Part shown: in pieces, positions 12,699 through 63,166 of the stretch
Numbering within the stretch: the stretch's first letter is position 1
Layout of the letters: each line of letters starts with the position of its first letter
DNA from: an uncultured Actinomycetes bacterium
Lineage (GTDB): Bacteria > Actinomycetota > Thermoleophilia > RBG-16-64-13
NCBI GenBank assembly: GCA_963809395.1
Contig: CAWEJM010000006.1
Location: 15,922-79,921, forward strand
DNA length: 64,000 nucleotides
Direction: 5' to 3'
The notes under the pieces: generated by a model
What the model was told of the DNA's origin: nothing
Database searches by the model: none
Seen by the model: only the letters and a program-made list of their open reading frames with translations
Program-made: the position numbers and the translations under genes

Positions 12699-12874
12699 GG
12701 CCGTCGGCTCGTCGCCGGCTCGCTGGCCTCGCGGCGCCGGCGGTCGCGGAGCCCCTGGCGCCGGCCCGCGGCCTCTGTGCTATCCTCCTGGCGTCGCTTC
12801 GGAGCCCGTGCTATCCTCGCTGGCGAAGAGAGCGGCTCACCAGGATTTGTCCCCATCTGACCACGGAGGAGACA

Positions 12875-17030: not shown

Positions 17031-22581
<5,551 letters not shown>

Positions 22582-30626: not shown

Positions 30627-30660
30627 GCGCGCCATCATCGCCCGCTTCGGCGGTGCGGGG

Positions 30661-45440: not shown

Positions 45441-45606
45441 TTCTTCCGGTGCCCGTGCACGTAATGGTCCAGGTTCGCCGCCAGGTCCGGCGGCAGGTCC
45501 GTCGGCCACGCCGATGTAGGCGGCGTAACGCTCAGCAAACGACGGCTGGGACAGCGGAGTCCGGGATGGTCAGCCGCACCTCGGCCCCGTCCGGCAACTC
45601 CACGCC
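45437..45606 (-). pseudogene. PIN-associated antitoxin (AF2212/DUF104-like), 5'-truncated at the block B/C junction, frame broken
   Basis: GVELPDGAEVRLTI, FAERYAAYIG, LPPDLAANLDHYVHGHRKK. Its stop overlaps the PIN start (ATGA). The N-terminal ~20 aa are absent. Confidence 0.5.
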
Positions 45607-46378
45607 GGGCGGCGCCGCCATTCTGGGCGGGCAGGCGCTGGAAGGCGGACACATCGGCTCCATCTTGCAGCCGACGGCGGCGCTGATCGTCTTTGGCGGC
45701 ACCCTCGGCGCGGTGTCGTTGCAGTTTCCCAGCGCCACCCTGCGGAAGACGGTGCGGAGCATCCGCGAGGTGTTCAAGCCGTCGCGCTACGACCTCGGTG
45801 AGACGGTGAGGACGGTGGTGACGCTGGCCAACAAGGCGCGCCGCGAAGGGCTGGTCTCCATCGAGAAGGAAGCGGAGGAGATCAAGGATCCGTTCCTCAA
45901 GCGCGCGGTGGAGATGGCGGTGGACGGCACCGAAGCCAAGGTGTTGCGCAGCGCGCTGGAGATGGAGCTCGAGCACCACGAGGAAGAGGGCGAAGGTCCC
46001 ATCAAGGTGCTGGAGTCGGGCGGTGGATATGCGCCCACCGTCGGAATTCTCGGCGCGGTGTTGGGGCTCATCCACGTCATGGAGAACCTGGCCGATCCGT
46101 CGAAGCTGGGCGGCGGCATCGCCGTGGCGTTCGTCGCCACGGTGTACGGCGTGGGGCTCGCCAACCTGATCCTCCTGCCGATGTCGGGAAAGCTGAAGAC
46201 GCGCCACCGCGAGCACACGCTGGCGATGGAGGTGACGATGGAGGGTGTGTGCGCCATCGCTGAGGGCGAAAACCCGCGCATCATCGAGCGCAAGCTGTCC
46301 ATCTACATCGGCGAGCGCAAGGGCGGCGCCGCTCCCAACGAAGCGGTCAAGAAGGCCGAGCTGAAGGCGGCGGCGTAG
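45606..46378 (+). pseudogene. motA: Flagellar stator protein MotA, 5'-truncated
   Basis: Starts mid-TM1 at GGAAILGGQALEGGHIGSILQPTAALIVFGGTLGA. GYAPTVGILGAVLGLI and AFVATVYGVGLANL. No start codon or N-terminal residues. Confidence 0.8.
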
Positions 46379-47149
46379 ATGGCGCGACGAAAGAGAAAGC
46401 CGGAGGAGCACGTCAACCACGAGCGCTGGCTGGTCAGGTACGCCGACTTCATCACGCTGCTCTTCGCGTTCTTCACCACGCTCTATGCCATCTCGACGGT
46501 GGATCAGAGCAAAGCGGGCCGGCTCATGTATTCGATGATGACCGCGCTCAACATCGACTTCTTTCCGGTGGGCAAGGCGCCGTCCCAGCAGTCGGCGGTG
46601 GGCGCCATCGTCCCCAAGGACGACGGCAAGGGCGGCCACGGCAAGCGCTCGGACATGGGCCGCATCGCCGAGGAGCTGCGCACGCTGGCGATCGATCCGG
46701 TGCTGCGCGGCCGCATGCAGGTGCACGAGACCCAGCGCGGCATCGTCGTCAGCCTGGCCGAGGCCGGCTTCTTCGAGTCGGGCAAGACGGACATTCGCAA
46801 GGACGCGGCGCAGGCGCTCGAGGTGATCGGCGCCGCCATCGCCGCACATGGCGATCTCGACGTTCTGGTGGAAGGCCACACCGACAATGTCCCGGTGCGC
46901 CAGGGCTCCAACTGGCTGCTCTCGACGGCGCGGGCCACCTACGTCGTCCTGCAGCTGCAGCAGCGGATGGGAGTGGCGCCGGAGCGGTTGTCGGCGGCGG
47001 GCTATGGCGAGTTTCGCCCGGTCGCCTCCAACGACACGCCCGAAGGCCGCGCGCGCAACCGGCGTGTGGACCTGGTGCTGCGCGATCACGCTTTGTCAAA
47101 ATTGACGGAACCGGGCGCGCCCGAGGCGGAAACTCCGCCGCAGGATTGA
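46379..47149 (+). CDS. motB: Flagellar stator protein MotB (OmpA-like C-terminal domain)
   Basis: Intact. ERWLVRYADFITLLFAFF plug/TM, GHTDNVP, NWLLSTARA, NRRVDL. Confidence 0.85.
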   Translation: MARRKRKPEEHVNHERWLVRYADFITLLFAFFTTLYAISTVDQSKAGRLMYSMMTALNIDFFPVGKAPSQQSAVGAIVPKDDGKGGHGKRSDMGRIAEELRTLAIDPVLRGRMQVHETQRGIVVSLAEAGFFESGKTDIRKDAAQALEVIGAAIAAHGDLDVLVEGHTDNVPVRQGSNWLLSTARATYVVLQLQQRMGVAPERLSAAGYGEFRPVASNDTPEGRARNRRVDLVLRDHALSKLTEPGAPEAETPPQD

Positions 47150-48629: not shown

Positions 48630-51031
48630 ATGAGAGGAAATGATAGCCTGGTCGTTGCCTGAAGTTCCTCGCACCAATCGCTCCCGGCCTCATTGTCGCG
48701 CTGCTGAGTAGCTGCGCCGACCGCCCGCTCTATCTTCCGGTCGACGAAGTTCCAGCGCCGGATTTGAGCGCTCGCGATCTGGGAGGGGCGCGTGACCTCA
48801 CGATCGCGTCCGATCTGAGCGTAGCGATTGATCTGAGCGTAGCGATTGATCTGAGCGTAGCGATTGATCTGAGCGTAGCGATTGATCTGGGCGTCGCTCC
48901 CGATCTGGGCGTGGCTCCCGATCTCAGCGTGGCACCCGATCTCAGTGTGGCACCCGATCTGAGCGTCGCGCCAGATCTCAGCGCACCCGATTTGAGCATT
49001 CCAACCCGTCCTGGCTGCGACGGGACTCTGCTTCTGCCGTCGGTGCCACGGCTGCTCGGGCGCGGTACTACCGTCAGCCTCGCCGCAGGCGATTACGACG
49101 GCGATGGCCGCCTCGATCTGATCGCCGGCTCGCCCTACAGCGGCACGGTGTCGCTGTTCCTGAGCGAAGGGCGCGGCCACTTTGGCCCCCCGACCACGCT
49201 CCCACTGACGACCGACCCGCTCGACGTCTTCGCTTTCGACGCCACCAGCGATGGCAAGACCGACATCGTCACTATTGGCGGGATGGGCATCCCCACGGTC
49301 TTGCCGGGCAACGGCGATGGCACCTTCGCCACTCCCATCAGCTCCATCACGGGGATCTCCGGGTACCCCCACGCCGTGGCAGGGGAGGTGAACGGCGACG
49401 GCATCACCGATCTGATCGCAGTGGACACCACTGTGGTGGTGCTTCTCGGCAACGGCGACGGCACCTACACCCGCGGCTTCTCGTCCCCGCTTCCGGCCCG
49501 CCAAAGCGCCGCCGCCATCGGGGACTTCGACGAGGACGGCGTCGCTGACGTGGTCGTCTCCTTCTGGGAGGGCGCGCCGGGACCGGCAGTCTACTTCGGT
49601 AACGGTGACGGCTCATTCGCCGGCCCGGTCAACGTCGACACCATCGGTTACGTCGAGGACCTCACGGTTGGCGACCTCGACGGCGACGGCCACCTCGATA
49701 TCGCCGCTGCGCAGGACGGCAGCTATCCCGGGTCCGTCCTCGTGTGGCCCGGCCTGGGTAACGGCGTGTTCGCACCCGCCGTGATCTACCCCGCCGACGA
49801 TCACAACTACAAGCTCGCTGCGGGCGACTTCGATGGCGACGGCCGTACCGACCTGGTCGACTCCGGCGACCACGGACTCAACCTGTATTTGCAGCAGCTC
49901 GACGGGACCCTCGGCCCGCGCCGCGTCTACCCGCTGGAAACGGCCGCCGCCACCTGGGCCGGCGACCTCGACAGTGACGGCCGCGACGATCTCGTGATCG
50001 CCTTTCACGGCGACGACATCGGCGTCCAACTCTCGCAGCCTGGAGGTGGCTTCCTTGTCGAAGACCACCTGGCCGGCGTCAGCGACCCGGCGGGCGGCGC
50101 TTCGTCCTTCTCATTCGCCGGCGGCGACTTCGATGGAGACGGCGATCGCGACATCGCCGTCTCCGAATGGTCGGGTACGGTCCGTATCCTGACGAATGCC
50201 GGCGGCGGCAGTTTCACCGCCGGACAGACGGTTTTTCGGCCGGGCAACTACCGCACGCTTGCTGCCGCGGACTTCAACCGCGATCGCATTCTTGATCTCG
50301 CCGTCGTCGATTTCTCGGCCGGCATCCGCTTCTTCCGTGGCGTGGGCGACGGCACCTTCGCCGCCGCCGGAATCATCTCCTATAGCTATCCCCTGGATCT
50401 GCTGCTCGGCGACTTCGATCGCGACGGTTTCCCCGACGTGGTGGTGCTGGCCAATCCGGCAGTCAGCATCTACCGCAATGTCGGCAACGGCACCTTCACC
50501 ACTGCCGGTTATTTCTCCAACGTCGGCGGCGGCCAATACTCCATCGGCGACATCGATGGCGACGGCAAGCCCGACCTGATCGGGGCCGATGCCTATAACG
50601 CCAAGCTGGAGTTGCTCCTCGGGCGTGGCGACGGCACCTTCACGCGTCAACCCCCCACGCCGATTGCCGGCTTGTGCGGCGCTACGGCCGGCGACTTCGA
50701 GCGCAACGGTCGCGATGAGCTGGTGATCGCCGACACCTCCGGCGCGCACCCGGTCGACCGCCGCGCCGACGGGACGCTGGCGCCCCGCGCGCCCATCCAA
50801 GGCAGCCTCTGCGCCACGCTCATCACCGCTGATCTCGATTCCGACGGGCGCCTCGACCTTCTCATGACCGGCAGCCCGCTCGGCTTCGCCCGCGGACATG
50901 GCGACGGCACCTTTACCCGCACGCGCGTGTACCAACATGGCGACTCGCCAGGCGACTTCGACGGCGATGGCACAGTCGACCTCCTGACCGCGCCCGGCGT
51001 ATCGCTTTTGAGGAACCGCGGCTGCGAGTAG
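48630..51031 (+). CDS. Lipoprotein with hexapeptide repeat linker and 14 FG-GAP/VCBS repeats; one frame break in the signal peptide
   Basis: MRGNDSLVVA, then LIVALLSSC lipobox in the ORF 48764 frame. DLSVAI/DLSVAP repeats. 14 GDxDGDGxxD units (two predicted 7-blade propellers). Confidence 0.75.
48761..48997 (+). repeat. About 13 tandem 18-bp (hexapeptide) coding repeats, four of them identical
   Basis: GATCTGAGCGTAGCGATT x4 at 48812-48883, flanked by diverged units (GATCTGGGCGTCGCTCCC and others). Confidence 0.85.
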
Positions 51032-51712: not shown

Positions 51713-51915
51713 TTCTTGCTGCTCGACGACGAGCTCGAGGAGAAGACGCTCGTCAAATAGCTTTGTTGGGTCTGAAAAGCCTGCATGAGCTTCTCCATGG
51801 CGGTGAACTGCGTCTGTAGCCGGGTCTCGAGCGCCGTGGCGCGCGCCTCGATGCGGGCGATCTCGGCTGTAAGGAGGGTCCCGCATAGATCGACGCCGCG
51901 CCACCCTTTTTTGCC
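51709..51915 (-). pseudogene. fliD: Flagellar cap protein FliD, C-terminal ~55 aa fragment only
   Basis: EIARIEARATALETRLQTQFTAMEKLMQAFQTQQSYLTSVF. Stop overlaps the fliS start. The frame opens just after a TAG, with no upstream FliD sequence. Confidence 0.55.
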
Positions 51916-51983
51916 GACCTAAGCTAGTGGTTGATCACTAATAGCATGGAGGGTCCGACCCGGGCCCACGAAGGGAGCTCACG

Positions 51984-53453
51984 TTGACTCGCAGGATCAC
52001 GCTCACGACATTCCTGATCACCTCTCTGGCCCTCTTCATGGTGTCGCTCGACAACCTCGTGGTGACGACCGCGCTTCCGGTGATCAAGCGGGAGCTCGGC
52101 GCCACGCTGGCCCAGCTCGAGTGGACCGTCAACGCCTATACCCTGACGTTCGCCGTCCTGCTGTTGACCGGCGCCGCGCTCGGCGACCGTTTCGGCCGCA
52201 AGCGGGTCTTCATCGTCGGCCTGACGATCTTCACCCTGGGTTCCGCCGCCGCCGCCCTCTCGACCACGGGTGACACGCTCGTCCTCGCCCGCGCCGTGCA
52301 GGGCCTCGGCGCGGCGATCGTGACGCCCCTGACGCTCACGATCCTCTCGGCTGCCGTGGCGCCTGAGCGCCGCGGGCTTGCCCTGGGCGCCTGGGGCGGT
52401 ATCACGGGCCTCGCGATCGCCCTCGGGCCGCTCGTCGGCGGCGCCATCGTGGAGGGCGTGAGCTGGCAGTGGATCTTCTGGGTGAACGTGCCGATCGGCC
52501 TCATCACCATCCCCCTCGCGGCGGCCTTCCTCGTCGAGAGCCGCGGCCCCGACACGCGGCTGGACATCCCTGGCCTCGCCTTTGCGTCGGGCGGCCTCCT
52601 GGCCCTCGTGTGGGGCCTGATTCACGGCAACGACGAAGGCTGGACGAGCGGCCCCATCGTGATGGCGTTCGTTGCGGCGGCGCTGCTCCTGGCCGGCTTC
52701 GTGGCCTGGGAGCGACGGACGCCGAGCCCGATGCTGCCGCCCCGGCTCTTCCGGAGCCGCCAGTTCAGCGCCGCGAACGGGGTCAGCTTCCTGATGTCGT
52801 TCGGGATGTTCGGCTCGATCTTCCTGCTGGCGCAGTTCTTCCAGGTCGTCCAGGGCTACTCGCCGTTCGAAGCGGGACTCCGGACCCTCCCGTGGACCGG
52901 CATGCCGATCATCGTGGCGCCGATCGCCGGCGCCCTTTCGGACCGGATCCATCCGCGCCTGCTGCTGGTGGCAGGCATGGGACTCATGGGAGCCGGCCTG
53001 GCGTGGATGGCCGCCCTCGTCACGCCGACGGTCGAGTACCTGGCCCTGGTGCCGGCATTCATGCTGGCCGGCACGGGAATGGCCCTGTACTTCGCCCCCA
53101 CCGCAAACCTCGTCCTCTCCGCGGTCCGCCGCGACGAGGAAGGGCGCGCCTCGGGCGCCAACAACACCATTCGGGAGGTCGGTGGCGTCTTCGGAGTGGC
53201 GATCCTCGCCTCGGTCTTCTCGGCCTTCGGTGGCTACGTCTCACCGCAGGCATTCGTCGACGGGCTCGTCCCGGCGGTCTGGGTCGGGGCGGTGGCCGTG
53301 AGCGCCGGCGCGTTCGTGGCGCTCCTCATCCCGGCACGTCGCGCGCTCGCGATCGGCAACGAGCCGAGGGCGACGGATCGTCCAGGGCTCGGATCGCTCG
53401 GCGCGCTCGGCGAGCCGGCCCTCGCTCCGGAGCCGGTGCGGATCGACCGCTGA
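51984..53453 (+). CDS. MFS transporter, DHA2 (EmrB/QacA) family
   Basis: Intact 489 aa, TTG start after GAAGGGAG. LGDRFGRKRVF and 14-TM-type layout. Confidence 0.85.
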   Translation: MTRRITLTTFLITSLALFMVSLDNLVVTTALPVIKRELGATLAQLEWTVNAYTLTFAVLLLTGAALGDRFGRKRVFIVGLTIFTLGSAAAALSTTGDTLVLARAVQGLGAAIVTPLTLTILSAAVAPERRGLALGAWGGITGLAIALGPLVGGAIVEGVSWQWIFWVNVPIGLITIPLAAAFLVESRGPDTRLDIPGLAFASGGLLALVWGLIHGNDEGWTSGPIVMAFVAAALLLAGFVAWERRTPSPMLPPRLFRSRQFSAANGVSFLMSFGMFGSIFLLAQFFQVVQGYSPFEAGLRTLPWTGMPIIVAPIAGALSDRIHPRLLLVAGMGLMGAGLAWMAALVTPTVEYLALVPAFMLAGTGMALYFAPTANLVLSAVRRDEEGRASGANNTIREVGGVFGVAILASVFSAFGGYVSPQAFVDGLVPAVWVGAVAVSAGAFVALLIPARRALAIGNEPRATDRPGLGSLGALGEPALAPEPVRIDR

Positions 53454-53472
53454 CGGCCGACGGCAGGAACAC

Positions 53473-53500
53473 GCGTGCCCCGGCGCCAGCCGGGGCACGC
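53473..53500. terminator. GC-rich hairpin between convergent genes
   Basis: GCGTGCCCCGG-CGCCAG-CCGGGGCACGC: 11-bp stem, no U-tract. Confidence 0.4.
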
Positions 53501-53604
53501 CCTTGCCCGGCTCGCCTCGACAAGCTCAGCCTGACAAGCAGCGGCGGCCACGATGTCCGCGAGGCGGCCTCGTCGAGATGCCCGGCGACGGAACGGGCCG
53601 CGAC

Positions 53605-54309
53605 CTAAAGGTCCGCGACGTCGATCAGGCCGCGACGGATCGCGTACTTGAGAAGCTCCACGCGGTCGTGGAAGCCGAGCTTCTCCATCACGTTCGCCCG
53701 GTAGTTGTGGATCGTCTGCTCCGAGAGATGGAGCGTCCGGGCGATCTCCCGGTTCGTGTGGCCGACGGCCGCGAGGAGCATGACCTCGCGCTCACGCTCG
53801 CTGAGCGTCTCGTACGGGTCCTCGAGCGTTCCCTGGGGCGTCTTCAGGACGTACGTGTTCACCATGCGCGTGACGATCGATGGGCTGACGTACGTCTGGC
53901 CGCGGCTGATCGAACGGAGGGCCGTCACGAAGTCGGAGGCGTGGGCCTCCCGGGTCAGGAAGCCGTCGGCACCCGCCTTGATGGCGAGCGAGAACTGCTC
54001 GCTCGTGCAGCGACACTCGACCGCCAGGATCTTCATGCCAGGCTTCGCGGCTCGCACGGCCTCGATCTGCTGGAACGAGGTGCAGCCCGAGCGGTCGTAG
54101 GGCAGGCACTCGGTGATCACCGCATCCGCGGGCGAGCGCATGACTTCCTCGCGCATCGCGTCGCGGTCCTGGACCTCGCCGAGCACTTCCATGTCGGGCT
54201 CGGCGTCGATGACCTCGCGCAGCCCGACGTTGAGCATCGGGAAGTCGAAGATAGCCAGGAGCACGCCGAGCTTCCTGCCGTTCGCCGGGCCGTGCCCGTT
54301 CGTGCTCAC
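53605..54309 (-). CDS. LuxR/NarL-type regulator with degenerate Cys-rich receiver domain (paralog 1)
   Basis: GTG start after GAGGTGA. C-terminal HTH LSEREREVMLLAAVGHTNREIARTLHLSEQTIHNYRANVMEKLG. The receiver has ITECLPY in place of the phospho-Asp motif, and ECRC. Confidence 0.75.
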   Translation of the reverse strand: MSTNGHGPANGRKLGVLLAIFDFPMLNVGLREVIDAEPDMEVLGEVQDRDAMREEVMRSPADAVITECLPYDRSGCTSFQQIEAVRAAKPGMKILAVECRCTSEQFSLAIKAGADGFLTREAHASDFVTALRSISRGQTYVSPSIVTRMVNTYVLKTPQGTLEDPYETLSEREREVMLLAAVGHTNREIARTLHLSEQTIHNYRANVMEKLGFHDRVELLKYAIRRGLIDVADL

Positions 54310-54458
54310 GCTGATGTCATCACCTCGCGGAAGGCGCTCCGGATAAACGCCCGGGACGCGGGTACCACTATCCGCCGACGGCGGGGGGTACGGCGTAGGG
54401 CCATCCGTCGCGTATGCGGATCCCTGTGGCCCCCCGCGGGCGGGACGAGCGGCCCCGG

Positions 54459-55223
54459 CTAGTCCTGCGCGCGGGTCTCCCCGTGGCAGAAGGTGCACAT
54501 GCCGGCCCGCGAGACCAGGTCATGTGGAGCGGTCGGCGCGGCCGTCGGCGACTGGGCGTGGCATGCCAGGCACATGGCGTTGGTGCGGTCCCGGTGATCG
54601 CCCGGGAGGGCGCCCACCTTGCCTGCCACGTGGCACGTGAGGCACTTCCCATCGGTGGGCGTCGGATGCTCGTACGCGGGCGCCTGCGCGCCCGATCCCT
54701 GGTGGCACAGCCAGCATGTGGTGCCCGAGCGATTGCGCATGCTGGCCGGCAGCGGCGCGAGCGACCCGTGACAGCCCAGGCAGTTCGCGTTCTTGGCGAG
54801 CGAATGCGGGCGATCGACTGCCGCGGGCGTCGTCGCCTTGTGGCAGAGGAGGCACTGGTCGGCGTGGATCCCGCTGTGGCCCGGCGCCGTCTTGACCAGG
54901 CGGTCGTTCGCATGACACTGGGTGCAGCTGGTCCATCCCTGGAGGGGGTGTCCGATGGGCGGCACGGCCACCGTGTCGCCGGGCGTCTTGTGGCACGCCG
55001 TGCAGTCGCCCGTCGGCATCTGCAGGGCGAGCTCGCCCGGCGGCGTGGACGGCGAGGCCGTCGGCACGGGAAGGGGCAGGGGAGTGGGCGTCGGAGCCTG
55101 CGCCGCGCGCCGCGGCTCCAGGCCGAAGCTGATGACGGCCAGGCCGATCGCGATCCCGATCGCCAGCATGGCGAACGCCGCAACGAGCCCTGCCACGACG
55201 CGTCGGATCCTCCTCGTCTTCAC
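54459..55223 (-). CDS. Membrane-anchored octahaem c-type cytochrome
   Basis: N-terminal TM, Pro-rich linker, and 8 CxxCH (CTACH, CTQCH, CLLCH, CLGCH, CWLCH, CLTCH, CLACH, CTFCH). Confidence 0.85.
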   Translation of the reverse strand: MKTRRIRRVVAGLVAAFAMLAIGIAIGLAVISFGLEPRRAAQAPTPTPLPLPVPTASPSTPPGELALQMPTGDCTACHKTPGDTVAVPPIGHPLQGWTSCTQCHANDRLVKTAPGHSGIHADQCLLCHKATTPAAVDRPHSLAKNANCLGCHGSLAPLPASMRNRSGTTCWLCHQGSGAQAPAYEHPTPTDGKCLTCHVAGKVGALPGDHRDRTNAMCLACHAQSPTAAPTAPHDLVSRAGMCTFCHGETRAQD

Positions 55224-56602
55224 CCGGCACCTCCGGATCCGTCCATCACCGGTGCGGAGAGCGCGACGGCAGGTGGGGTTGCCGGCGCGACGGCGGGCGG
55301 CGCCGGGACGTGCGCGGCGGGCGCTGCCGGGACGTGCACGGCCGGTGCCGCGTCATCGTCGTCGGCAGGCGGGCGCGACGCCCGGACGAGATGGCCCTCG
55401 TGCTCGCCCATCGGCAGGTAGCGCTCCATGAGGGTATAGGCGAGGCCGATGAAGCCGAGCGCTCCCACGACGATCGCGATCTCGACGGGAGACGGCGTAT
55501 ACGTCGCCCACGGCGACGAGACGACTCCCGAGACTGCCGTCGTCGGCGCGATCTGGCCGGCGTTCACGAAGAGCATCCGGTCGGCGAAGAGGCCGACGAA
55601 CGCCAGGACGGAGGCCGCGAAGAGGCCGGCCGGCGTCCGCGTCCCGGGCAGGACGAGGACCGCCATCGGGACGGCCAGCCCGAGGCCGACGCGGATCACC
55701 CAGAAGGGGATCGCGAGCGGCCCGACGAGCAGCGCGAGCGTGGCGTCGGAGAGCCCGGGGACCGCGCCGTAGAGGCCCATGATCGTCTGCAGCAGGAGGA
55801 GGAGCGCGGCCACAACAAGGACGATCGTGAGCACCAACCGCAGGGCCGGGATCGCCAGGCTCGTCCCGCGCTCCCAGCCGGCGAGGCGGAAGCGGAAGAC
55901 GCAGTAGAAGACGATCCCGAGGAGTGCCGTGCCCGACAGCAGGGCGGACACGATCATGAACAGCGGCGTGAAGGGACCGTGCCAGAACCCGCGCGCGGCC
56001 AGCACGCCGAACACCGCCCCCAGGGTCGCCGGGGCGAAGATGGCCGTGACCGAGGAGCACAGGCAGGCGACCCGGTGGACCCCCCAGCGCCCGGTGAACA
56101 TGCTCCACACCTCGGTGAGGAGGAACACTAGGTAGACACCGTAGAAGACGCCCATCCACCACATCGGCGACAACGGCGACGGGCTGAGGACGGCCCCGAA
56201 CGCCAGGCGGAGGGGGTAGTGGAGGTCGAGGGCGATCACGCCGAATGCGGTGACCAGGCTGAGGACCGCGAGCAGCGCGTGGCGCTTCTCGAGCGGCATG
56301 AACATCTCGATCCCGAAGACCGTGCCGAGCGAGGAGACCAGGCACAGCCCGCTCGTGGTGATGGCGAAGAAGACGTAGGCGCCGATGAGGATCCCCCACT
56401 CGGTGGTGGGCGTCGTCCCGAAGACCTCCCACCCGGGAGGCAGGCTGAGGATCGCGCCGACCGCGCCGACCAGGCACAGGACGGACAGGAAGCCGAGCCA
56501 GAGCTTCAGGGGCCGCGGCGTCGTCGCGATCTCGATCCGGAGCGCGCCGATGGCGACCCGCGGGTCGGCGGACAGGTGGCGGCCGGCGACGTGGACGCTC
56601 AT
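55220..56602 (-). CDS. NrfD/PsrC-family integral membrane quinol-interacting subunit
   Basis: Internal ATG of ORF 55220..57760. 460-aa polytopic protein with a Pro/Ala-rich C-terminal tail. 1-nt overlap with the upstream Fe-S gene. Confidence 0.8.
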   Translation of the reverse strand: MSVHVAGRHLSADPRVAIGALRIEIATTPRPLKLWLGFLSVLCLVGAVGAILSLPPGWEVFGTTPTTEWGILIGAYVFFAITTSGLCLVSSLGTVFGIEMFMPLEKRHALLAVLSLVTAFGVIALDLHYPLRLAFGAVLSPSPLSPMWWMGVFYGVYLVFLLTEVWSMFTGRWGVHRVACLCSSVTAIFAPATLGAVFGVLAARGFWHGPFTPLFMIVSALLSGTALLGIVFYCVFRFRLAGWERGTSLAIPALRLVLTIVLVVAALLLLLQTIMGLYGAVPGLSDATLALLVGPLAIPFWVIRVGLGLAVPMAVLVLPGTRTPAGLFAASVLAFVGLFADRMLFVNAGQIAPTTAVSGVVSSPWATYTPSPVEIAIVVGALGFIGLAYTLMERYLPMGEHEGHLVRASRPPADDDDAAPAVHVPAAPAAHVPAPPAVAPATPPAVALSAPVMDGSGGAG

Positions 56603-57474
56603 CAGTCCACCTCCCCCTGCAGGCCCTTGTAGTAGACCTTCGGCCTCGTACCCAGCGAGGGCCGCATCGTCCGGACCCGGTCGTCGAGGATCGTGGTGCT
56701 CACGACGCTGGTCGGGTCCTTCAGGTCGCCGAAGATGCGAGCCTGGACGGGGCACACCTCGACGCACGCCGGCAGCTGGCCCCGGGTCGTCCGGTGGTAG
56801 CAGAACGTGCACTTGTCGGCGACGCCCGCAACGCCCTTCGGCGTCGTCTCGCCGGCCGGCACCATGTAGCGTGCGCCGTAGGGGCACGAGACGAGACAGT
56901 ACCCGCAGCCGATGCACCGGTCCTGGTCGACCAGAACGACTCCGTCGGGCGTCCGGTAGGTGGCGCTGACGGGACAGACCGTGACGCAGGGCGGGTTCTC
57001 GCACTGCATGCAGAGGCGGGGCACGAAGTAGGCTTCGCGGACGGTCGCCCCTGGCGCCGGTGGGAGCGCGCCCTCCGGCGGGAACCCGCGGACTCCGCCG
57101 TCGGGCGACTCGATCCGGACCGTCCCGTCGTCCAGGAGGGCGTGGAGCTCGATCCAGGTCCGGTTGCAGGTTGGCTCCTCGGGGACGTGGTTCTCGAGCT
57201 TGCAGGCCTCGACGCAGCGGCCGCAGCCGATGCACGTCGTCGTGTCGACCACGTAGCCCCACCGATGTGCCGCCGGGTCGTACTGCCCCGCCGGCGAGGG
57301 CATCTCGGCCGCTGCGGCCACGCCGTCGTCGGTGGTCGAGAGCAGGAGGCCCAGCGCCCTGGCGCCCACGATGCCGGGGACGATGGCCAGGCCGAGCCCC
57401 AGGAGGCGGCGCCGCGAGAGCGCCATCCGGCCCCGAGCGGGGGCCTCCGAGTTGGTCACGTGGGGATCGCTCAT
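56602..57474 (-). CDS. Tat-exported four-cluster ferredoxin subunit (NrfC/PsrB/DmsB type)
   Basis: SRRRLLGLG twin-arginine motif. CIGCGRCVEAC, CMQCENPPCVTVCP, CIGCGYCLVSCP, CTFC...CVEVCP. Confidence 0.85.
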   Translation of the reverse strand: MSDPHVTNSEAPARGRMALSRRRLLGLGLAIVPGIVGARALGLLLSTTDDGVAAAAEMPSPAGQYDPAAHRWGYVVDTTTCIGCGRCVEACKLENHVPEEPTCNRTWIELHALLDDGTVRIESPDGGVRGFPPEGALPPAPGATVREAYFVPRLCMQCENPPCVTVCPVSATYRTPDGVVLVDQDRCIGCGYCLVSCPYGARYMVPAGETTPKGVAGVADKCTFCYHRTTRGQLPACVEVCPVQARIFGDLKDPTSVVSTTILDDRVRTMRPSLGTRPKVYYKGLQGEVD

Positions 57475-57483
57475 GGGGCGCTC

Positions 57484-58179
57484 CTAGTCGCCGGCCGTCG
57501 ACGGCTTGTGGCAGGTCCGGCAGACCGCGTCCGGGCCTTCCTCGTGCCCGACGGGCACGGGCTTGAGTCCAGCCGGCCGGTGGCAGGTGACACACGCCGG
57601 CAGGTTTGCCAGCGAGTGCGAGATGTCGGGGGGCCGTAGCGCCGTCGTGGCGTGGCTGTCGTGGCAGCCCAGGCAAGGGGCGCCGGCGTAGTGCTTCGTC
57701 AGGTCGACCTGGGGGAAGGTGAGCCGCCTCCCGGTCACGGCGGCATGGCAGACCGCGCACAGCCCGTCGGACGGCTTCTCGATCGCGAGGCTCCCTGCGG
57801 GCGCCGTGACCGGCGCCGTGGCCGCATGCTCGGCCAACGGCCCGTGGCAGCTCTCACAGGTCACCGCTGCGTGCTTGGCTGCCTGCCACGGCGCGTACTC
57901 GCGCGCGTGGCAGCGCTGGCACAGCGCGGAGTCCGCGTATTGCGGGGTGAGGGCCGCCCACGACCGGGCGTTCTGCTCGGGGTGGAAGCCATACTCGTCG
58001 TAGACCCGGGGGATCACCACCAGGATGGCCATGGCAGAGATGGTCATGACTGCGACCAGGGCGACGCCGGCCACCACGGCCTTGAGCGTTCGCCGCGGGC
58101 CGGATGGACGCAGGCGTCGCAGCGAGGCCCGCAGGGCCGCAGGGCGCCCGCCCCCGAGCGCCGCGCGCAGGCGGGTCAC
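57484..58179 (-). CDS. Membrane-anchored hexahaem c-type cytochrome
   Basis: N-terminal TM and 6 CxxCH (CQRCH, CESCH, CAVCH, CLGCH, CVTCH, CRTCH). GTG start overlaps the regulator stop (GTGA). Confidence 0.85.
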   Translation of the reverse strand: MTRLRAALGGGRPAALRASLRRLRPSGPRRTLKAVVAGVALVAVMTISAMAILVVIPRVYDEYGFHPEQNARSWAALTPQYADSALCQRCHAREYAPWQAAKHAAVTCESCHGPLAEHAATAPVTAPAGSLAIEKPSDGLCAVCHAAVTGRRLTFPQVDLTKHYAGAPCLGCHDSHATTALRPPDISHSLANLPACVTCHRPAGLKPVPVGHEEGPDAVCRTCHKPSTAGD

Positions 58180-58883
58180 AGCTCCGCCGCCTGGATCACG
58201 CCGCGACGAAGCGCGTACCTCAGGAGGTCGACCCGGTCATGGAAGCCGAGCTTCTCCATGATCGTGGCCCGGTGGTTGTGCACCGTCTGCTCCGAGACGT
58301 GGAGCGTGCGTGCGATCTCGCGATTCGTGTGCCCGAAGGCGGCGAGGCGGAAGATCTCGCGCGACCGCTCGCTGAGCGACTCGTAGGCGTCCGCCTGCCC
58401 CGCCTCGGGCCCGCGCAGGACGTAGGTGTTCACCATCCGCGTGACGACCGCCGGGCTCACGTACGTCTCGCCGGCGGCGATGCGACGCACGGCTTCGAGG
58501 ACGTCGGCGGGCTGGGCCTCGCGGGTGAGGAAGCCGTCGGCGCCGGCCTTGATGGCCAGCGAGAACTGCTCGCTGCCACAGCGGCACTCGATCGCCAGGA
58601 TCTTGACGGTCGGGTTCGCCGCCCGGATCGTCTCGATCGCCTGGAACGACACGCAGCCCGTGCTCCCGTAGGGCAGGCACTCCGTGATGACGACATCGGC
58701 AGCGGACCGGGCCACCTGGTCCCGCACCGGCTCGCCGTCGTCGAGGACGCCGACGACATGCATGTCGGCCTGCCTGTCGATCAACGCGCGAAAGCCGGCG
58801 ACGAGCGCCGGAAAGCTGGCGATGCCGAGGTACACGCCGAGACGCTGACCATTGCCCGGCAGGGGCCCCTGGGCTCCCATCAC
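58176..58883 (-). CDS. LuxR/NarL-type regulator with degenerate Cys-rich receiver domain (paralog 2)
   Basis: Same architecture as 53605..54309: ITECLPYGSTGC, ILAIECRC, AIKAGADGFLTRE, HTH LSERSREIFRLAAFGHTNREIARTLHVSEQTVHNH. Confidence 0.75.
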   Translation of the reverse strand: MMGAQGPLPGNGQRLGVYLGIASFPALVAGFRALIDRQADMHVVGVLDDGEPVRDQVARSAADVVITECLPYGSTGCVSFQAIETIRAANPTVKILAIECRCGSEQFSLAIKAGADGFLTREAQPADVLEAVRRIAAGETYVSPAVVTRMVNTYVLRGPEAGQADAYESLSERSREIFRLAAFGHTNREIARTLHVSEQTVHNHRATIMEKLGFHDRVDLLRYALRRGVIQAAEL

Positions 58884-58905
58884 GCGTTCGCCCCAGGATC
58901 CCGGC

Positions 58906-59208
58906 TCAGCCGTGCGCCGCGACGCTGTGCGCCCGCCTTCGAAGCGCGAGGGCCCATGCGACGGGCGTGGCCGCGAAGATGATCACGCTCACGATGACGC
59001 CGACCGTCGCCGCCCCGGTCCCGAGGGTGAAAAGCAGGCCGTAGGTGACGATGAACAGGATGATGAACTCGCAGGCCATCGAAAGCAGCGTGAGAGCGAG
59101 CCAGGGGGCCACAAGGGAGCGTCCGCTGCTGCCCGGAACCCGCAGGAGCGCAGCGCCGATCACCAGCAGCCAGATCAGGAGCGCCACCAGGACTTCAACG
59201 CTGTCCAT
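58906..59208 (-). CDS. Small hypothetical membrane protein (about 3 TM)
   Basis: Internal ATG of ORF 58906..59328. Hydrophobic segments only. Confidence 0.4.
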   Translation of the reverse strand: MDSVEVLVALLIWLLVIGAALLRVPGSSGRSLVAPWLALTLLSMACEFIILFIVTYGLLFTLGTGAATVGVIVSVIIFAATPVAWALALRRRAHSVAAHG

Positions 59209-59332
59209 GTCCGTGTCCTCGTCAACCCATGGGCGTCGGACTCGATCCGTTCGACGTAGCCTGAATCTGGGTGTCTCGAGCGCGGACGGGTACCGCATAC
59301 CGGGGCCATGTTGGTCCGACAGACGCACTCAA

Positions 59333-59405
59333 CTTGGGCAACGGTCGTGGGAATTGCCGCGACCGTCGGCGGCGATTGGGCAACGCTCGTCGACAATGGA
59401 GCAAC
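59333..59405. promoter_or_regulatory. Three phased direct repeats (TTGGGCAACG-type) upstream of the membrane protein / regulator / cytochrome operon
   Basis: TTGGGCAACGgTCGT at 59333, TTGGGCAACGcTCGT at 59375, TGGAGCAACGcCCGT at 59396. The GCAACG cores are spaced 42 and 21 bp apart. Confidence 0.45.
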
Positions 59406-59444
59406 GCCCGTTGGTCGCGGGACGACGCCCGCCAGGTGTCGGGG

Positions 59445-59864
59445 TCAGGCGCCGTCCTGGCGCGATCGACCGACGACGCGGACGATGCCTCGCCCGATCC
59501 CGTAGCCGATCACGACCGGCGGCAGGAACCAGAACAACGCCATCACGCCCTGGACGGGGTCGATCGGGACCGGGTTGCCCACCGAGGATGCCAGGAGCGG
59601 GATCGTCACGAGGCCGAGCAGGGCGCCGACGACCACGAAGCCGAGGCCCGGCCATCCGTTCGTCAGGATCCCGGCGAGGCTGCCGGCGAGGAGCAGGATG
59701 ATCGGCGACACGAGGATGCCGTTGAGCGCGCACTCGGCGGTCAGGCCCTGGGTGGCGCAGCTGAGGAGAGCGCCGCCGAACAACGCCGCCGGGCACGCGA
59801 CGGCGACGAGGAGCAGCGCGGCCATGTCGCGGATCATGGTCCTGGAGGCCAGGCTCACGGGCAC
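59445..59864 (-). CDS. Hypothetical membrane protein
   Basis: 139-aa ORF with 4 hydrophobic segments. No recognisable motif. Start not resolved. Confidence 0.4.
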   Translation of the reverse strand: MPVSLASRTMIRDMAALLLVAVACPAALFGGALLSCATQGLTAECALNGILVSPIILLLAGSLAGILTNGWPGLGFVVVGALLGLVTIPLLASSVGNPVPIDPVQGVMALFWFLPPVVIGYGIGRGIVRVVGRSRQDGA

Positions 59865-60020
59865 CTCCTCGCTGCCATCATGCGCGCTTCCGCGCCCCGC
59901 GTCTCACGGTCGCGGCGCATCCCACGGGCCCGTCCCACGGGCCGGTCCCGCCGGCTTCGCGCTCCGCGGTCCGCGACGGCCGCCCGCTCGACCACCTGCC
60001 GCAGGTTACGCTCCGTCGCG

Positions 60021-61907
60021 ATGACCGACCGCGACCGGACGCTCGCCGCCGTCGTGGACGCCTTCGCCCCGGGCGGCGAGGGCCTCCCGCCTGCAAGCGA
60101 CCTTGGCGTCCATCACCGCTTCCTCGCCGAAGTGGCCGCGCTCGATCGCCCGTCGCTGACGCGCGAGCTCGACCTCCTCCTGCGGCTCATGGATTCGCGC
60201 GCCGGCAGTCTGGCCCTCGCCGGCCGCCCCGTTCGCTTCACGCACCTCGACCAGGACGGCCGCGAGGCGTACTTGCGCCGGCTCGCGGCCAGCCCGATCC
60301 CGCTGAAGCGGACCGCGTTCCAGGACCTGAAACGCCTGACCCTCCTACTCGTCTACGGCATGGAGGACTCTCCCTGGCGGGCGCGCACCGGCTACAGGCC
60401 ACCCCCGCCCGACCCGCCCGACATCGGCCCGGTGACAGCGCGGACGCCGGCGGACGGCGAGGTGATCGAAGCCGACGCCGTCGTCATCGGTTCGGGCGCG
60501 GGTGGATCCGTGGCCGCGGCGGTGCTCGCCGCGGCCGGCCGGCGGGTCGTCGTCCTGGAACGTGCCGCGATGGTCGCCGAGGACCGCTTCGGCGGGCCGG
60601 AGCTCGACGGGCTCGCAGACCTGTTCCTGGATCGGGGACTCGCCGCCACGTCCGACCGATGGATCTCGATCCGTGCCGGGAGCGCGGTCGGAGGCGGGAC
60701 GGTCGTCAACTGGAGCTCGTCGCTGCGCGCTCCGGCAGCCGTTCGCGACGAATGGCGCGCGGCCGGCATCGAGGATGACCTCGACGCACACTACGCGGCC
60801 GTCGAGGCGGAGCTCGAGGTCACGACGACAGAGAGCGAGCCGAATGGGCCGAATGGCCGCCTCCTGGCCGGCCTCCAGGCGCTCGGCCTGGCGTCGGCGG
60901 TCGTGCCGCGCAACGTCCGGGGGTGCGGCGACTGTGGCCCGTGTGCCGTGGGCTGTCGGCGGGGCGCCAAGAAGTCGGCCCTGCGGACGTACCTGGCGGC
61001 TGCCTGCGGCGCCGGCGCCGTCGTCCTCGATCGCTGCGAGGCCCACCGGATCATCGTCGAGAGCGGGCGCGCGACGGGGGTCGTCGCCCGAGTGCCGGGC
61101 GGTGAGGTCACCATCCAGGCTCCGCTCGTCGCGCTCGCCGGCGGCAGCATCCTCTCGCCCGCGGTGCTGCTGTGGTCAGGGATCGCGACCGCGACCGCCG
61201 GACGATCCCTGCTGATCCATCCCGTCGTCGCCGTCGCCGGCATCTATGCCGAGCCGCTCGAGCCTTGGGGCGGCGTTCCGCAGTCGATCCTCAGCGAGTC
61301 CCACGCCGAGATCGACGGACCGTGGGGCTTCCGCATCGAGGCTGCGCCGACGCACCCAGGCCTCATCGCCAGCGGGCTCCCCTGGTGGTCCAGCGCGGGC
61401 CACCGGGCGCTGATGGCGGACAGCGGGCGGACCGCCGCCTTTCTGGCCATCATCCGCGATCGCAATCCGGGCCGTGTCCAGGTGTCGCGCGACGGCGGCG
61501 TGACCGTGCGCTACGCACCCGGGGCCCCCGAGCGCGCGCTCCTTGGACGAGCCATGCCGGAGCTCTCGCGAGTCCACCACGCGGCGGGTGCCCGGAGGAT
61601 CGTCCCGCTCGTGACGCCGCCGGCGACCTGGGAGGAAGGGCGTCCCTTCGATCGATATCTCGCGGAGCTGGCGCGCCGCCCGATCAGCCCGAACCGGGTG
61701 CTCCTCTTCACGGCCCACCAGATGGCCAGCTGCCGGATCGGCACGAGTCCCCGGAGCAGCGTGGCCGACCCCGACGGGCGCGTCTGGGGCGTGGACGGGC
61801 TCTACGTCACCGACGGCAGCGCCTTCCCCACGGCGACCGGCGTCAACCCGATGCTCTCCATCCTCGCCCTGGCCCGTCGCACGGCGCAGCGGATGGCAGA
61901 TCGCTGA
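60021..61907 (+). CDS. GMC family FAD-dependent oxidoreductase (long-chain alcohol oxidase-like, with N-terminal extension)
   Basis: Internal ATG of ORF 59271..61907. ADAVVIGSGAGGSVAA dinucleotide fold. C-terminal GVDGLYVTDGSAFPTATGVNP. Confidence 0.8.
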   Translation: MTDRDRTLAAVVDAFAPGGEGLPPASDLGVHHRFLAEVAALDRPSLTRELDLLLRLMDSRAGSLALAGRPVRFTHLDQDGREAYLRRLAASPIPLKRTAFQDLKRLTLLLVYGMEDSPWRARTGYRPPPPDPPDIGPVTARTPADGEVIEADAVVIGSGAGGSVAAAVLAAAGRRVVVLERAAMVAEDRFGGPELDGLADLFLDRGLAATSDRWISIRAGSAVGGGTVVNWSSSLRAPAAVRDEWRAAGIEDDLDAHYAAVEAELEVTTTESEPNGPNGRLLAGLQALGLASAVVPRNVRGCGDCGPCAVGCRRGAKKSALRTYLAAACGAGAVVLDRCEAHRIIVESGRATGVVARVPGGEVTIQAPLVALAGGSILSPAVLLWSGIATATAGRSLLIHPVVAVAGIYAEPLEPWGGVPQSILSESHAEIDGPWGFRIEAAPTHPGLIASGLPWWSSAGHRALMADSGRTAAFLAIIRDRNPGRVQVSRDGGVTVRYAPGAPERALLGRAMPELSRVHHAAGARRIVPLVTPPATWEEGRPFDRYLAELARRPISPNRVLLFTAHQMASCRIGTSPRSSVADPDGRVWGVDGLYVTDGSAFPTATGVNPMLSILALARRTAQRMADR

Positions 61908-61983
61908 TTGCCCCGGGGTGCGCCGGCGGAGGTCAGTGGCCGGTGGTCGGCGGGCTGCGGATCGCCTGCGGCAGGGAGCCCGG

Positions 61984-62907
61984 TCAGGTGGTCCGGAGCG
62001 ACGTGGCGCGAGGCCGCCACGCGGCACGGGCGCCGTCGACGTCTCCCGTGCCCGGCGGTGTGCCGGCCCGGACCCCGCTGCTGGCGAGCGCGACCGCGGC
62101 CAGGAGCATGGAGGCGCCGCCAAACCACAGGGCCGGCAGGGCCACCATCGCGGCAACCGGAACGGTCCAGCGCCGGTCGGTCCGGGCTCCCCAGGTGACG
62201 ATCGCGGCGGCGAGGGGCAGGCGGACCCAGACGGGCACCGGGACCGCGGCCCACGTTCCGGCCGTCTTCGTCGCGCTGGCGCCGAGCACCGTCAGCCATT
62301 GCGTCCACAGGTCGGGTGCGGCGAGCCACGAGACGGCGACGATCGCGGCGGTCGCACCCAGGGCGATCCCGAGGCTCCGCCACTCGCGACGCACCGCGAA
62401 CCAGAGAAGGCCCACGCCGGGCGTCACCTTCGTGAGGAGGACGAAGGACCAGGCGGCCGGCCAGCGGAAGCCCGCGACGATCGCCACGGCCAGGAGCAGG
62501 TGGATGTTGCCACCCAGGATCTCGAGCACGCAGAAGGCGATCGCAATGGCCCACAGGCGTGCGCCCGCGAGATAGCGGATGGCCAGCAGGAGCAGCACCG
62601 TCCACGTGGCAAAGAAGGCCTCCCACGGCAGGGCCTTTAGCAGCGCGATCACCTGCAGGAACGCCGGCGAGTAGACGTACGCGATCGGCTGCGTCCAGTT
62701 CGAGCTTGCGTACGGGTCGGCGAGGCTCGGGAACCAGTAGCAGAAGGCCTCCTGGCCCGTCGGCGTGGGGCCGGAGTTCGGCACGATGTTGGCGAGGGCG
62801 TACAGGAGGACGATGGCAGCCGCGAACAGCCCCAGGCCTTCCCGTCTGAGGAACGTGCTCGTGCGCCGAAGCCTGACCCTCGTGATGGCTACCCCCGGAC
62901 GACGCAT
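61984..62907 (-). CDS. Polytopic membrane protein, DUF2029 / glycosyltransferase family 87-like
   Basis: Internal ATG of ORF 61984..63441. YVYSPAFL and GNIHLLLAVAIVAGFRWPAAWSFVLLTKVTPGVGLLWFAVRREWR. Confidence 0.5.
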   Translation of the reverse strand: MRRPGVAITRVRLRRTSTFLRREGLGLFAAAIVLLYALANIVPNSGPTPTGQEAFCYWFPSLADPYASSNWTQPIAYVYSPAFLQVIALLKALPWEAFFATWTVLLLLAIRYLAGARLWAIAIAFCVLEILGGNIHLLLAVAIVAGFRWPAAWSFVLLTKVTPGVGLLWFAVRREWRSLGIALGATAAIVAVSWLAAPDLWTQWLTVLGASATKTAGTWAAVPVPVWVRLPLAAAIVTWGARTDRRWTVPVAAMVALPALWFGGASMLLAAVALASSGVRAGTPPGTGDVDGARAAWRPRATSLRTT

Positions 62908-63166
62908 TCTCGGACGATGCCGCTGCTGATCGGCGGCCCGCCGGTTTCGACACCTGTGTACAGGATCGGGCTCGCCTCCCGCAAGGTCAAGCGTACCGGA
63001 TTTGGCGAGGCCTTCCCGTCCGAGTTGACCGGTCCAGGCAGCCCGGTCGCGCCGGCTGCCACTGTCTGGCGGCCCTGCGCCTCGTGGGGTATCGACCGGC
63101 CGGCTGGGGTGCCAGGAATACGGCGCAGCGTTTGACCGTCGCACCGGCGGCGCGCAGGCTTGGCCG

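Follow-up and report, generated by a model that had tools for sequence, protein, structure and literature searches.

A conserved NrfC/NrfD cassette with two membrane-anchored multihaem cytochromes in uncultured Chloroflexota, a putative redox-regulated menaquinol:cytochrome oxidoreductase

Introduction

The subject of this study is a gene cassette carried by a 64,000-nt stretch of DNA (GenBank assembly GCA_963809395.1, contig CAWEJM010000006.1, positions 15,922 to 79,921; hereafter the window), in which an NrfC-type ferredoxin and an NrfD-type membrane subunit stand between two membrane-anchored multihaem cytochromes (MHC), without a catalytic subunit. Quinol:cytochrome c oxidoreductases in which an NrfD-like protein is joined by a four-cluster iron–sulfur (FeS) protein and one or more multihaem cytochromes, while a catalytic subunit is lacking, are a known class, with examples from metal-respiring bacteria. 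Cbc4 (CbcS-CbcT-CbcU) of Geobacter sulfurreducens has been proposed as a menaquinol:cytochrome c oxidoreductase (bioRxiv 10.1101/2025.04.14.648717). NrfBCD of Escherichia coli, NetBCD and SirCD pass quinol electrons through NrfC- and NrfD-like proteins to a multihaem cytochrome, and the last two serve extracellular or multiple acceptors; Shewanella SirCD can replace CymA (PMC11434368), and Aeromonas NetBCD is listed among the functionally characterised inner-membrane quinol dehydrogenases (PMC8805035, PMC9012536). For the Methanoperedenaceae, Leu et al. (2020) described NrfD-FeS-MHC clusters (groups 4 and 5) as proposed menaquinone:cytochrome c oxidoreductases for extracellular electron transfer (EET) (PMC7327174).

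Similar parts are found in complexes of other composition. In alternative complex III (ACIII, ActABCDEF), a quinol:cytochrome c oxidoreductase, the multihaem ActA is anchored and is accompanied by an FeS module and a further cytochrome. QrcABCD combines an anchored cytochrome of six haems with an FeS protein of four clusters and an NrfD of ten helices; its quinone site is on the outer side, and it reduces menaquinone. The Psr/Phs molybdoenzymes, of the complex iron–sulfur molybdoenzyme (CISM) type, hold the nearest sequence relatives of the NrfD studied here, and their PsrB is the best solved relative of its NrfC.

Results and Discussion

Gene content and organisation

The cassette is a co-directional string of minus-strand genes at 53605–59328, given here in gene order:

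58906–59328, minus strand: small three-helix membrane protein, 140-aa open reading frame (ORF); first gene of the cassette, 22 nt upstream of RR1
58176–58883, minus strand: RR1, LuxR/NarL-type pseudo-receiver regulator; Pfam GerE and a weak Response_reg match; coupled to cyt6
57484–58179, minus strand: cyt6, membrane-anchored hexahaem c-type cytochrome, 231 aa; six CxxCH motifs, GTG start
56602–57474, minus strand: NrfC-type ferredoxin, 290 aa; four [4Fe-4S] cluster motifs and its own twin-arginine translocation (Tat) signal
55220–56602, minus strand: NrfD-type integral membrane subunit, 460 aa; Pfam NrfD, ten predicted helices, presumed quinone site
54459–55223, minus strand: cyt8, membrane-anchored octahaem c-type cytochrome, 254 aa; eight CxxCH motifs, GTG start
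53605–54306, minus strand: RR2, second LuxR-type pseudo-receiver regulator, a paralogue of RR1; intergenic gap of ~150 nt after cyt8

Across genomes, the order is a small membrane protein, a Cys-rich pseudo-receiver regulator, cyt6, NrfC, NrfD and a cytochrome with five, seven or eight haems, with a second regulator in some of them. An initial annotation, made from the sequence without database searches, had placed a LuxR-like regulator at the head of a string coupled by overlapping stop and start codons, and re-reading of the DNA bore this out: the TGA of RR1 and the GTG start of cyt6 overlap as GTGA (58176–58179), the NrfC stop and the NrfD ATG as TGATG (56600–56604), and the NrfD stop and the GTG of cyt8 as GTGA (55220–55223). 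NrfC starts 9 nt past the TAG of cyt6 and is preceded by GGAG. The small membrane protein upstream, the paralogous regulator downstream and the pseudo-receiver nature of both regulators had been missed. The G+C content at third codon positions was 0.90–0.93 across the five genes from RR1 to cyt8.

The numbers of haem motifs first reported, six and eight, were unchanged on re-checking: CxxCH is found at residues 87, 108, 141, 169, 196 and 220 of cyt6 and at residues 74, 100, 124, 148, 170, 194, 218 and 243 of cyt8. The concentration of the motif in these two proteins is far beyond chance, since 14 of the 18 CxxCH counted in all six frames of the window lie within them. Profile searches, which had been proposed as a check, matched all the families concerned, with both cytochromes assigned to multihaem families of Pfam, NrfC to 4Fe-4S dicluster families and NrfD to its own family. 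Promoter-like sites were absent from 53400–60000 in a scan that marked two terminator-like sites, a number not above the ~0.9 expected from shuffled sequence.

Conservation and variants of the locus

The loci used for comparison were obtained by a scan of one genome per species, which gave 57 loci (L001–L057), to which L058 and L059 were added for a total of 59. All 57 were from Chloroflexota metagenome-assembled genomes (MAGs) labelled Limnocylindria, Limnocylindrales or 'uncultured Chloroflexia', with NrfD identities to that of the window of 49–95%. The order regulator-cyt6-NrfC-NrfD-second cytochrome was kept in nearly all of them, often with identical 4-nt overlaps, and a 3.55-Mb contig carried the same six genes between unrelated flanks. 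On these comparisons, the cassette is real, conserved and lineage-specific to uncultured Chloroflexota (Limnocylindria). The synteny group that the initial annotation had suggested looking for therefore does recur, in 57 species-level genomes; an existing name for it was not found, and the literature searched contained neither a named MHC6-NrfC-NrfD-MHC8 group nor a description of the cassette in Limnocylindria.

The concern that a chimeric contig might have lost an adjacent catalytic gene was not borne out. The stretch is not chimeric, since L001, an independent 988-kb MAG contig, is colinear with window positions 51872–63074 at 96.3% identity; the gene order is also conserved beside unrelated flanks, and NrfC has its own Tat signal. 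Searches by tblastn with three PsrA-like proteins, the molybdopterin (Mo)-protein fragments of the window itself and one cytochrome b gave no match to a molybdopterin subunit or a cytochrome b in the 59 loci (L001–L057 total 870 kb). The absence of a molybdopterin subunit, a cytochrome b and an ActB/QrcB-like gene, first noted for the cassette itself, extends to ~8 kb around it in the 57 genomes. Clustering of all flanking ORFs revealed no other conserved functional neighbour, the recurring genes, such as an aldo-keto reductase, reflecting lineage synteny only; among these clustered ORFs, no hydrogenase, formate dehydrogenase or oxidase genes were linked to the cassette.

Three divergent genomes have a NapC/NirT-like decahaem cytochrome (540–660 aa) adjoining the core (L018, 74–3044; L050, 3528–5510; L048, 3681–5309). 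In L018, the only one of these three in which such genes were read, a thioredoxin/AhpC-like gene is also present, and a MerR/HTH_17 regulator is translationally coupled to cyt6 in place of the LuxR pseudo-receiver. Because these loci add a decahaem cytochrome and L018 uses a different regulator, the unit is the four-gene core, while regulation and extra haem proteins are swappable.

Comparison with described systems

In gene content, overlapping codons and conservation, compared with published descriptions, the cassette falls within the Cbc4/NetBCD-type functional class. As in Cbc4, the gene for an anchored multihaem cytochrome is followed by that for the four-cluster FeS protein and then by that for the haem-free membrane subunit, a cytochrome is tethered by an unstructured linker, and there is no catalytic subunit. 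Judged from its description only, Cbc4 differs in that CbcS is a tetrahaem protein of the NapC/NirT type, whereas cyt6 is hexahaem without NapC/NirT signature, and in having one cytochrome, where the cassette has two together with pseudo-receiver regulators and a small membrane protein. The initial annotation had called the layout related to, but not identical with, Nrf, Qrc, ACIII and Cbc; the lack of identity stands for Nrf, Qrc and ACIII, as detailed below, but the cassette is closer to known systems than had been implied, given that Cbc4 has the same MHC-FeS-NrfD order.

The cassette does not belong to NrfABCD. Its NrfC scored 149.8 vs. 377.6 with TIGR03149, the NrfB score was 23.6 vs. 184, and no NrfD equivalog was matched. 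Nrf-type cytochromes are soluble, periplasmic and found in diderms, in contrast to the two anchored ones of the cassette, and Nrf-type NrfD has eight helices as opposed to ten. The absence of an NrfA-type CxxCK haem protein, already reported, is supported in that no NrfA-like gene and no cytochrome gene other than the two with CxxCH are present, the CxxCK motif itself not having been scanned. The Methanoperedenaceae clusters, likened here by description, also place an NrfD-like gene beside a 4Fe-4S ferredoxin and multihaem cytochromes without a catalytic subunit, but they are archaeal, have other cytochromes and have no such regulators described.

Assignment to ACIII is excluded by the presence of a single NrfD-like gene and of an NrfC of 290 aa without a molybdopterin-like domain; unlike ACIII, the cassette lacks the ActB1 molybdopterin-like domain, ActD, the second NrfD-like ActF and the monohaem ActE, although similarity to the ActC fold was found. 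Nor is the cassette a QrcABCD: QrcB and any other molybdopterin-like ORF are also lacking, the QrcC score was 109.9 vs. 400, and Qrc works in the direction opposite to the one favoured here. DsrMKJOP does not fit either, the scores being 199.8 vs. 200 (DsrO) and 32.7 vs. 350 (DsrP), with no cytochrome b in the 59 loci. The Psr/Phs/Ttr-type CISM is likewise excluded by tblastn across these loci, where cytochromes take the place of the molybdopterin subunit; NrfC, with a Tat signal of its own, is also longer by ~100 residues. What is new is the pairing of a fixed hexahaem cytochrome with a tethered one of variable length, its confinement to Limnocylindria-type Chloroflexota, the four-cysteine pseudo-receivers and the small membrane protein.

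Multihaem cytochromes

A single hydrophobic stretch of ~23 residues lies near the N-terminus of either cytochrome (the anchor of cyt6 spans residues 38–56), in agreement with the N-terminal anchors first assigned to them. Anchoring by a signal-anchor rather than a lipobox is likely, because neither protein has a cysteine beyond its haem motifs. Chloroflexota are thought to lack an outer membrane, and membrane-anchored cytochromes are expected in such a lineage.

Of the 57 cyt6 orthologues, 56 carried six haem motifs, as did 117 of 120 database homologues. Six additional histidines (103, 118, 163, 176, 188 and 212) were 98–100% conserved, a number sufficient for all six haems, which are apparently bis-His. 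The segment between the anchor and the first haem is also conserved (Y60, G64, P67 and W74), which suggests that cyt6 is a docked, fixed subunit.

In cyt8, the CxxCH motifs are spaced by 22–26 residues (a haem repeat of ~24), and seven of the eight are preceded by a His or Met 8–9 residues before them. A Pro/Thr/Ala-rich linker of ~40 residues is unconserved. The haem number of this distal cytochrome varies, with five in 46 loci and eight in nine loci, and with five, seven or eight in database (metagenome) homologues. With M162 conserved to 93% at a ligand-like position and M69 to 78%, the distal cytochrome probably has one or more His/Met haems, which would be of higher potential.

Both families are small, with 175 and 96 database matches, all unnamed or 'hypothetical', and with few organism labels, all of them Chloroflexota. 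Marginal matches in the PDB (phmmer, E 1e-3 to 1e-2) were to NrfB and MtrA-like proteins for cyt6 and to MtrC for cyt8. An AlphaFold2 (AF2) model of cyt6, based on an alignment of 36 sequences, had a predicted local distance difference test value (pLDDT) of 70 and a predicted template modelling score (pTM) of 0.39, and Foldseek returned only meaningless matches for it.

NrfC and NrfD

NrfC contains 16 cluster cysteines in four motifs and the twin-arginine motif SRRRLLGLG, and matched Fer4_7 (88.4 bits) and Fer4_11 (77.8 bits), so that both its Tat signal and its assignment to the four-cluster ferredoxins were corroborated. In NCBIfam, the best match was DsrO, followed by TtrB, NrfC, ArrB and QrcC, all below cutoff; in the PDB, it was PsrB (2vpw_B, E=1e-46). 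The Tat motif, S/T-RR-x-F/V/L-L/I, was found in 54 of 60 NrfC copies. In true molybdoenzymes the FeS subunit is usually exported on the signal of the catalytic subunit. The autonomous signal of NrfC, with which no Tat-exported partner is needed for hitch-hiking, fits a complex built without a catalytic subunit, from which no catalytic partner is missing.

NrfD is a member of its superfamily, as first proposed (Pfam PF03916, 72.6 bits vs. a cutoff of 25.8, profile positions 4–310 of 313). The Pro/Ala-rich tail that had been noticed corresponds to residues 409–460, and is unconserved and predicted to be disordered. The sole NCBIfam match was DsrP, far from its cutoff. Sequence and profile searches against the PDB gave no match, and only the fold search succeeded: an AF2 model (pLDDT 76, pTM 0.75) with ten long helices and a disordered tail had as best Foldseek matches ActC, which binds quinol in ACIII (6btm_C, 8k9e_C, 6f0k_C and 6lod_C), at template modelling scores (TM-scores) of 0.67–0.72 and 14–16% identity. 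A positive-inside reading places both termini in the cytoplasm and the invariant residues E68, D126, S142, S145 and H208 in predicted outer loops, which would suit the quinone site that has been located near the outer face in this family (PMC8076601).

Among 1.84 billion cluster representatives searched by profile, 175 relatives of NrfD were found at E<1e-30. The closest ones outside the cassette family are located in operons of a Tat-signal molybdopterin subunit, an FeS protein of ~180 aa and NrfD; these look like Psr/Phs-like reductases, because rhodanese, sulfur-transport and TorD-like genes stand alongside. One further relative is part of an NrfD-FeS-cytochrome c7-like trio. From these relationships, the cassette likely descends from a Psr-type quinol module in which the enzyme was replaced by cytochromes.

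Regulators and small membrane protein

The LuxR-type output of RR1 was clear (GerE, 65.5 bits) and its receiver match weak (Response_reg, 31.6 bits vs. a cutoff of 30.2); RR2 stayed below that cutoff with 26.5 bits. The receiver alignment used NarL and a canonical regulator of the window as references. In RR1, the acidic pair DD is replaced by AS, the acceptor Asp by Glu68 and the conserved Lys by Arg; in RR2, the pair is FD, with one Asp kept, and the acceptor Asp and the Lys are again replaced by Glu and Arg. Neither protein has a phosphorylatable receiver. The cysteines C69, C77, C100 and C102 of RR1 were present in 89–97% of 63 regulator copies: C69 lies right after the former acceptor, C77 in the next loop, and C100 and C102 after strand 4, so that on the receiver fold the four would surround the former phospho-acceptor pocket. 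RR2 has the same four cysteines, with 63% protein identity to RR1 and 78% DNA identity over 300 nt (family D1); its likely start is the GTG at 54306, although the ORF extends to 54498. A downstream copy was found in only eight loci, mostly with an eight-haem cytochrome.

Because four cysteines take the place of the phospho-acceptor pocket, RR1 and RR2 probably sense redox conditions through them, by a thiol-, metal- or Fe-S-based switch, rather than through phosphorylation. Atypical response regulators with a Cys-based redox switch are RitR (PMC5965902) and HP1021/CemR (PMC8266642, PMC11334517), the latter controlling energy-conversion genes as CemR. They share with RR1 and RR2 a receiver-like domain without a working phospho-acceptor, and their cysteines serve as the sensor; they have OmpR-type or other outputs and one or few cysteines, whereas the cassette regulators have a LuxR/GerE output and four cysteines (x7 and CxC spacing). 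The four-Cys pseudo-receivers may be a new form of the receiver fold that senses redox state or metals.

The small membrane protein has no Pfam family. Its likely true start is the ATG at 59208, which gives ~100 aa (MDSVEVLV...) and three helices. By tblastn it was found just upstream of the regulator and on the same strand in 51 of the 59 loci, ending 12–32 nt before the regulator in most readable ones; of the eight misses, six were loci cut on that side or without a LuxR regulator, and L003 and L004 were below the score cutoff. ActD and NhcD are structural subunits of related complexes. The small protein could be a membrane partner of the regulators or a structural subunit. Conserved upstream k-mers were considered as shared operators of the regulators and rejected, as they code for this protein; no operator was identified.

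A second small membrane protein, with 139 aa, multiple helices, conserved cysteines and no Pfam family, is encoded at 59445–59864 on the minus strand. Homologues were on the cassette strand in only 14 of the 59 loci and at variable positions (upstream or 1–8 kb downstream); the protein was therefore excluded as a cassette member, a loose association with the cassette being possible. On the plus strand, diverging from the cassette, is a GMC-family oxidoreductase (59271–61907), whose ORF has an Arg/Asp/Ala-rich N-terminal extension of ~440 aa that is probably untranslated, with a likely start near 60500.

Proposed function and alternatives

Considering the gene content, cofactor motifs, export signals, fold and conservation established above, with no catalytic subunit, we propose with moderate confidence that the cassette is a redox-regulated menaquinol:multihaem-cytochrome oxidoreductase with an extracytoplasmic acceptor. 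A quinone-linked extracytoplasmic electron conduit, suggested in the initial annotation, remains the best explanation. NrfD, haem-free and with ten helices, would oxidise menaquinol near the outer face of the membrane. Electrons would then cross the four [4Fe-4S] clusters of the Tat-exported NrfC and reach the six putatively bis-His, low-potential haems of cyt6. From there they would pass to the distal cytochrome, with its flexible Pro-rich tether, its length varying by whole haem units and its probable His/Met haem, and finally to an extracytoplasmic acceptor, which might be an extracellular or cell-wall-distal oxidant, Fe(III) or Mn(IV) minerals or humics for instance, or a separate extracytoplasmic reductase. 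Expression would be set by the four-cysteine redox switch of RR1 and RR2. Which way the electrons flow, which of the two cytochromes comes first, what accepts the electrons, how the regulators work and whether the complex conserves energy are matters of inference.

Outward flow is favoured by four arguments, all of them indirect: the nearest NrfD relatives serve quinol-oxidising reductases; the probable higher-potential haem is in the distal cytochrome; some genomes pair the core with a NapC/NirT-type decahaem cytochrome; and NetBCD, SirCD and NrfBCD are experimentally supported precedents. Several points weigh against the proposal. The direction is not fixed by sequence, and Qrc, built from the same parts, runs the opposite way; no acceptor gene is linked to the cassette in the flanks of the 59 loci; the haem axial ligands are read from conservation alone, with a poor model and no structural match for cyt6; and all carriers are uncultured MAGs.

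A reversed, Qrc-like flow, from extracytoplasmic donors (reduced humics, Fe(II), or H2 and formate via periplasmic enzymes) through the cytochromes and NrfC to menaquinone, possibly electrogenic, is unlikely. Qrc, a cytochrome c:menaquinone oxidoreductase, is built in a similar way, with a ten-helix NrfD, an FeS protein of four clusters and an anchored cytochrome of six haems (PMC6303296, PMC13059093). Six is also the number of haems in cyt6, whose all-bis-His pattern would suit low-potential donors. Nevertheless, a QrcB-like subunit is absent, QrcC remained far below its cutoff, and neither a hydrogenase nor a formate dehydrogenase gene is linked to the cassette. The closest relatives of NrfD, moreover, serve reductases and thus oxidise quinol, and the conserved Met of the distal cytochrome suggests an exit haem of higher potential.

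It is also unlikely that the cassette is a pared-down functional counterpart of ACIII, a housekeeping or conditional quinol:cytochrome c oxidoreductase that would supply the cell's own terminal oxidase or enzymes of denitrification instead of external acceptors. In favour of this view, NrfD has its best structural matches in ActC, the order of anchored MHC, FeS protein, NrfD and second cytochrome parallels actA-actB-actC...actE, and the probable His/Met distal haem would parallel the high-potential ActE; furthermore, respiration with oxygen and nitrate has been described for Limnocylindria relatives (PMC13212565). This view must be set against the absence of the ActB1 domain, ActD, ActE and ActF and of linked oxidase genes. 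To reach a neighbouring membrane oxidase, a cytochrome would not need as many as five to eight haems and a long flexible tether, and the dedicated redox-type regulators, together with their exchange for another type (MerR in L018), speak for a module that is accessory and conditional.

A DsrJOP-like module, with a cytochrome, a DsrO-like and a DsrP-like protein in sulfite or sulfur redox chemistry, is very improbable and close to refuted. Its basis is that NrfC missed the DsrO cutoff by 0.2 bits, that DsrP was the sole NCBIfam match of NrfD and that the cytochrome-FeS-NrfD order is that of dsrJ-dsrO-dsrP. The DsrP score, however, was less than a tenth of its cutoff, the cytochromes have six and five to eight haems vs. 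three in DsrJ, and no dsrM/dsrK (cytochrome b/HdrD-like) was found in the 59 loci, HdrD not having been queried directly.

Finally, an artefact or a decayed Psr-like molybdoenzyme operon, with its catalytic gene lost by misassembly or pseudogenisation, is hardly credible and already refuted by the comparative data: although the window has many frameshifted genes, typical of long-read assemblies, and the nearest NrfD relatives belong to molybdoenzyme operons, the cassette genes are intact, the same order recurs in 57 species-level genomes, in some of them on Mb-sized contigs, the haem and cluster ligands are all conserved, NrfC carries its own Tat signal and L001 is colinear with the window.

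Other features of the window

Unlike the cassette genes, several genes elsewhere in the window are frameshifted. dnaE is broken across four frames (4036–7591), hisD is fused to hisB (11426–13501), and the glycine-cleavage P protein gene (gcvP) is in pieces (29631–32154). Such broken and fused housekeeping genes look like indel errors of long-read assembly rather than biology. A molybdopterin oxidoreductase, with Molybdopterin and Molydop_binding domains, lies in three frames at 7795–10229 on the plus strand. It was considered as the missing catalytic subunit of the cassette and rejected, being 45 kb away, beside dnaE and the his genes, and having no counterpart near the cassette in the 59 other loci.

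Three further features were recorded. An FG-GAP/VCBS-repeat protein of 755 aa (48764–51031, plus strand) has the N-terminal hexapeptide repeats DLSVAI, DLSVAP and DLGVAP, encoded by an 18-nt tandem repeat at ~48790–48960. MotA and MotB stator genes (45449–47149, plus strand) imply flagellar motility, which has been called uncommon in Chloroflexota and reported for freshwater relatives of the lineage (PMC13212565). A protein of 1000 aa (17038–20040, minus strand) has an unusual architecture, with a weak receiver-like domain and a PEP-utilising/PPDK_N ATP-binding domain.

Significance

Limnocylindria (Ellin6529/CSP1-4 relatives) are widespread in soils, sediments and lakes. Descriptions present them mainly as heterotrophs that respire aerobically or with nitrate (PMC13212565), and no mention of a multihaem respiratory module for Limnocylindria was found in the literature searched. 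The four core genes, with a distal cytochrome of five, seven or eight haems, offer a tidy model for the way in which NrfCD modules come to serve haem wires instead of enzymes, and the four-cysteine pseudo-receivers can be tested as candidates for a new response-regulator variant that senses redox state. A bolder view, possible but doubtful, is that Limnocylindria, an uncultured yet abundant branch of Chloroflexota in soil and freshwater, possess a self-contained, horizontally shuffled EET module of Psr-type ancestry, in which the molybdoenzyme was swapped for two tethered haem wires. Its switch would be a new class of regulators, with the phospho-acceptor pocket turned into a four-cysteine redox sensor, possibly of the Fe-S or metal type, that works with a three-helix membrane partner. 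If the cassette is a quinol-to-multihaem route, it would give these organisms access to iron, manganese or humics, or would constitute an unrecognised branch of their respiratory chain, with a bearing on carbon and metal cycling in soils that alternate between oxic and anoxic conditions.

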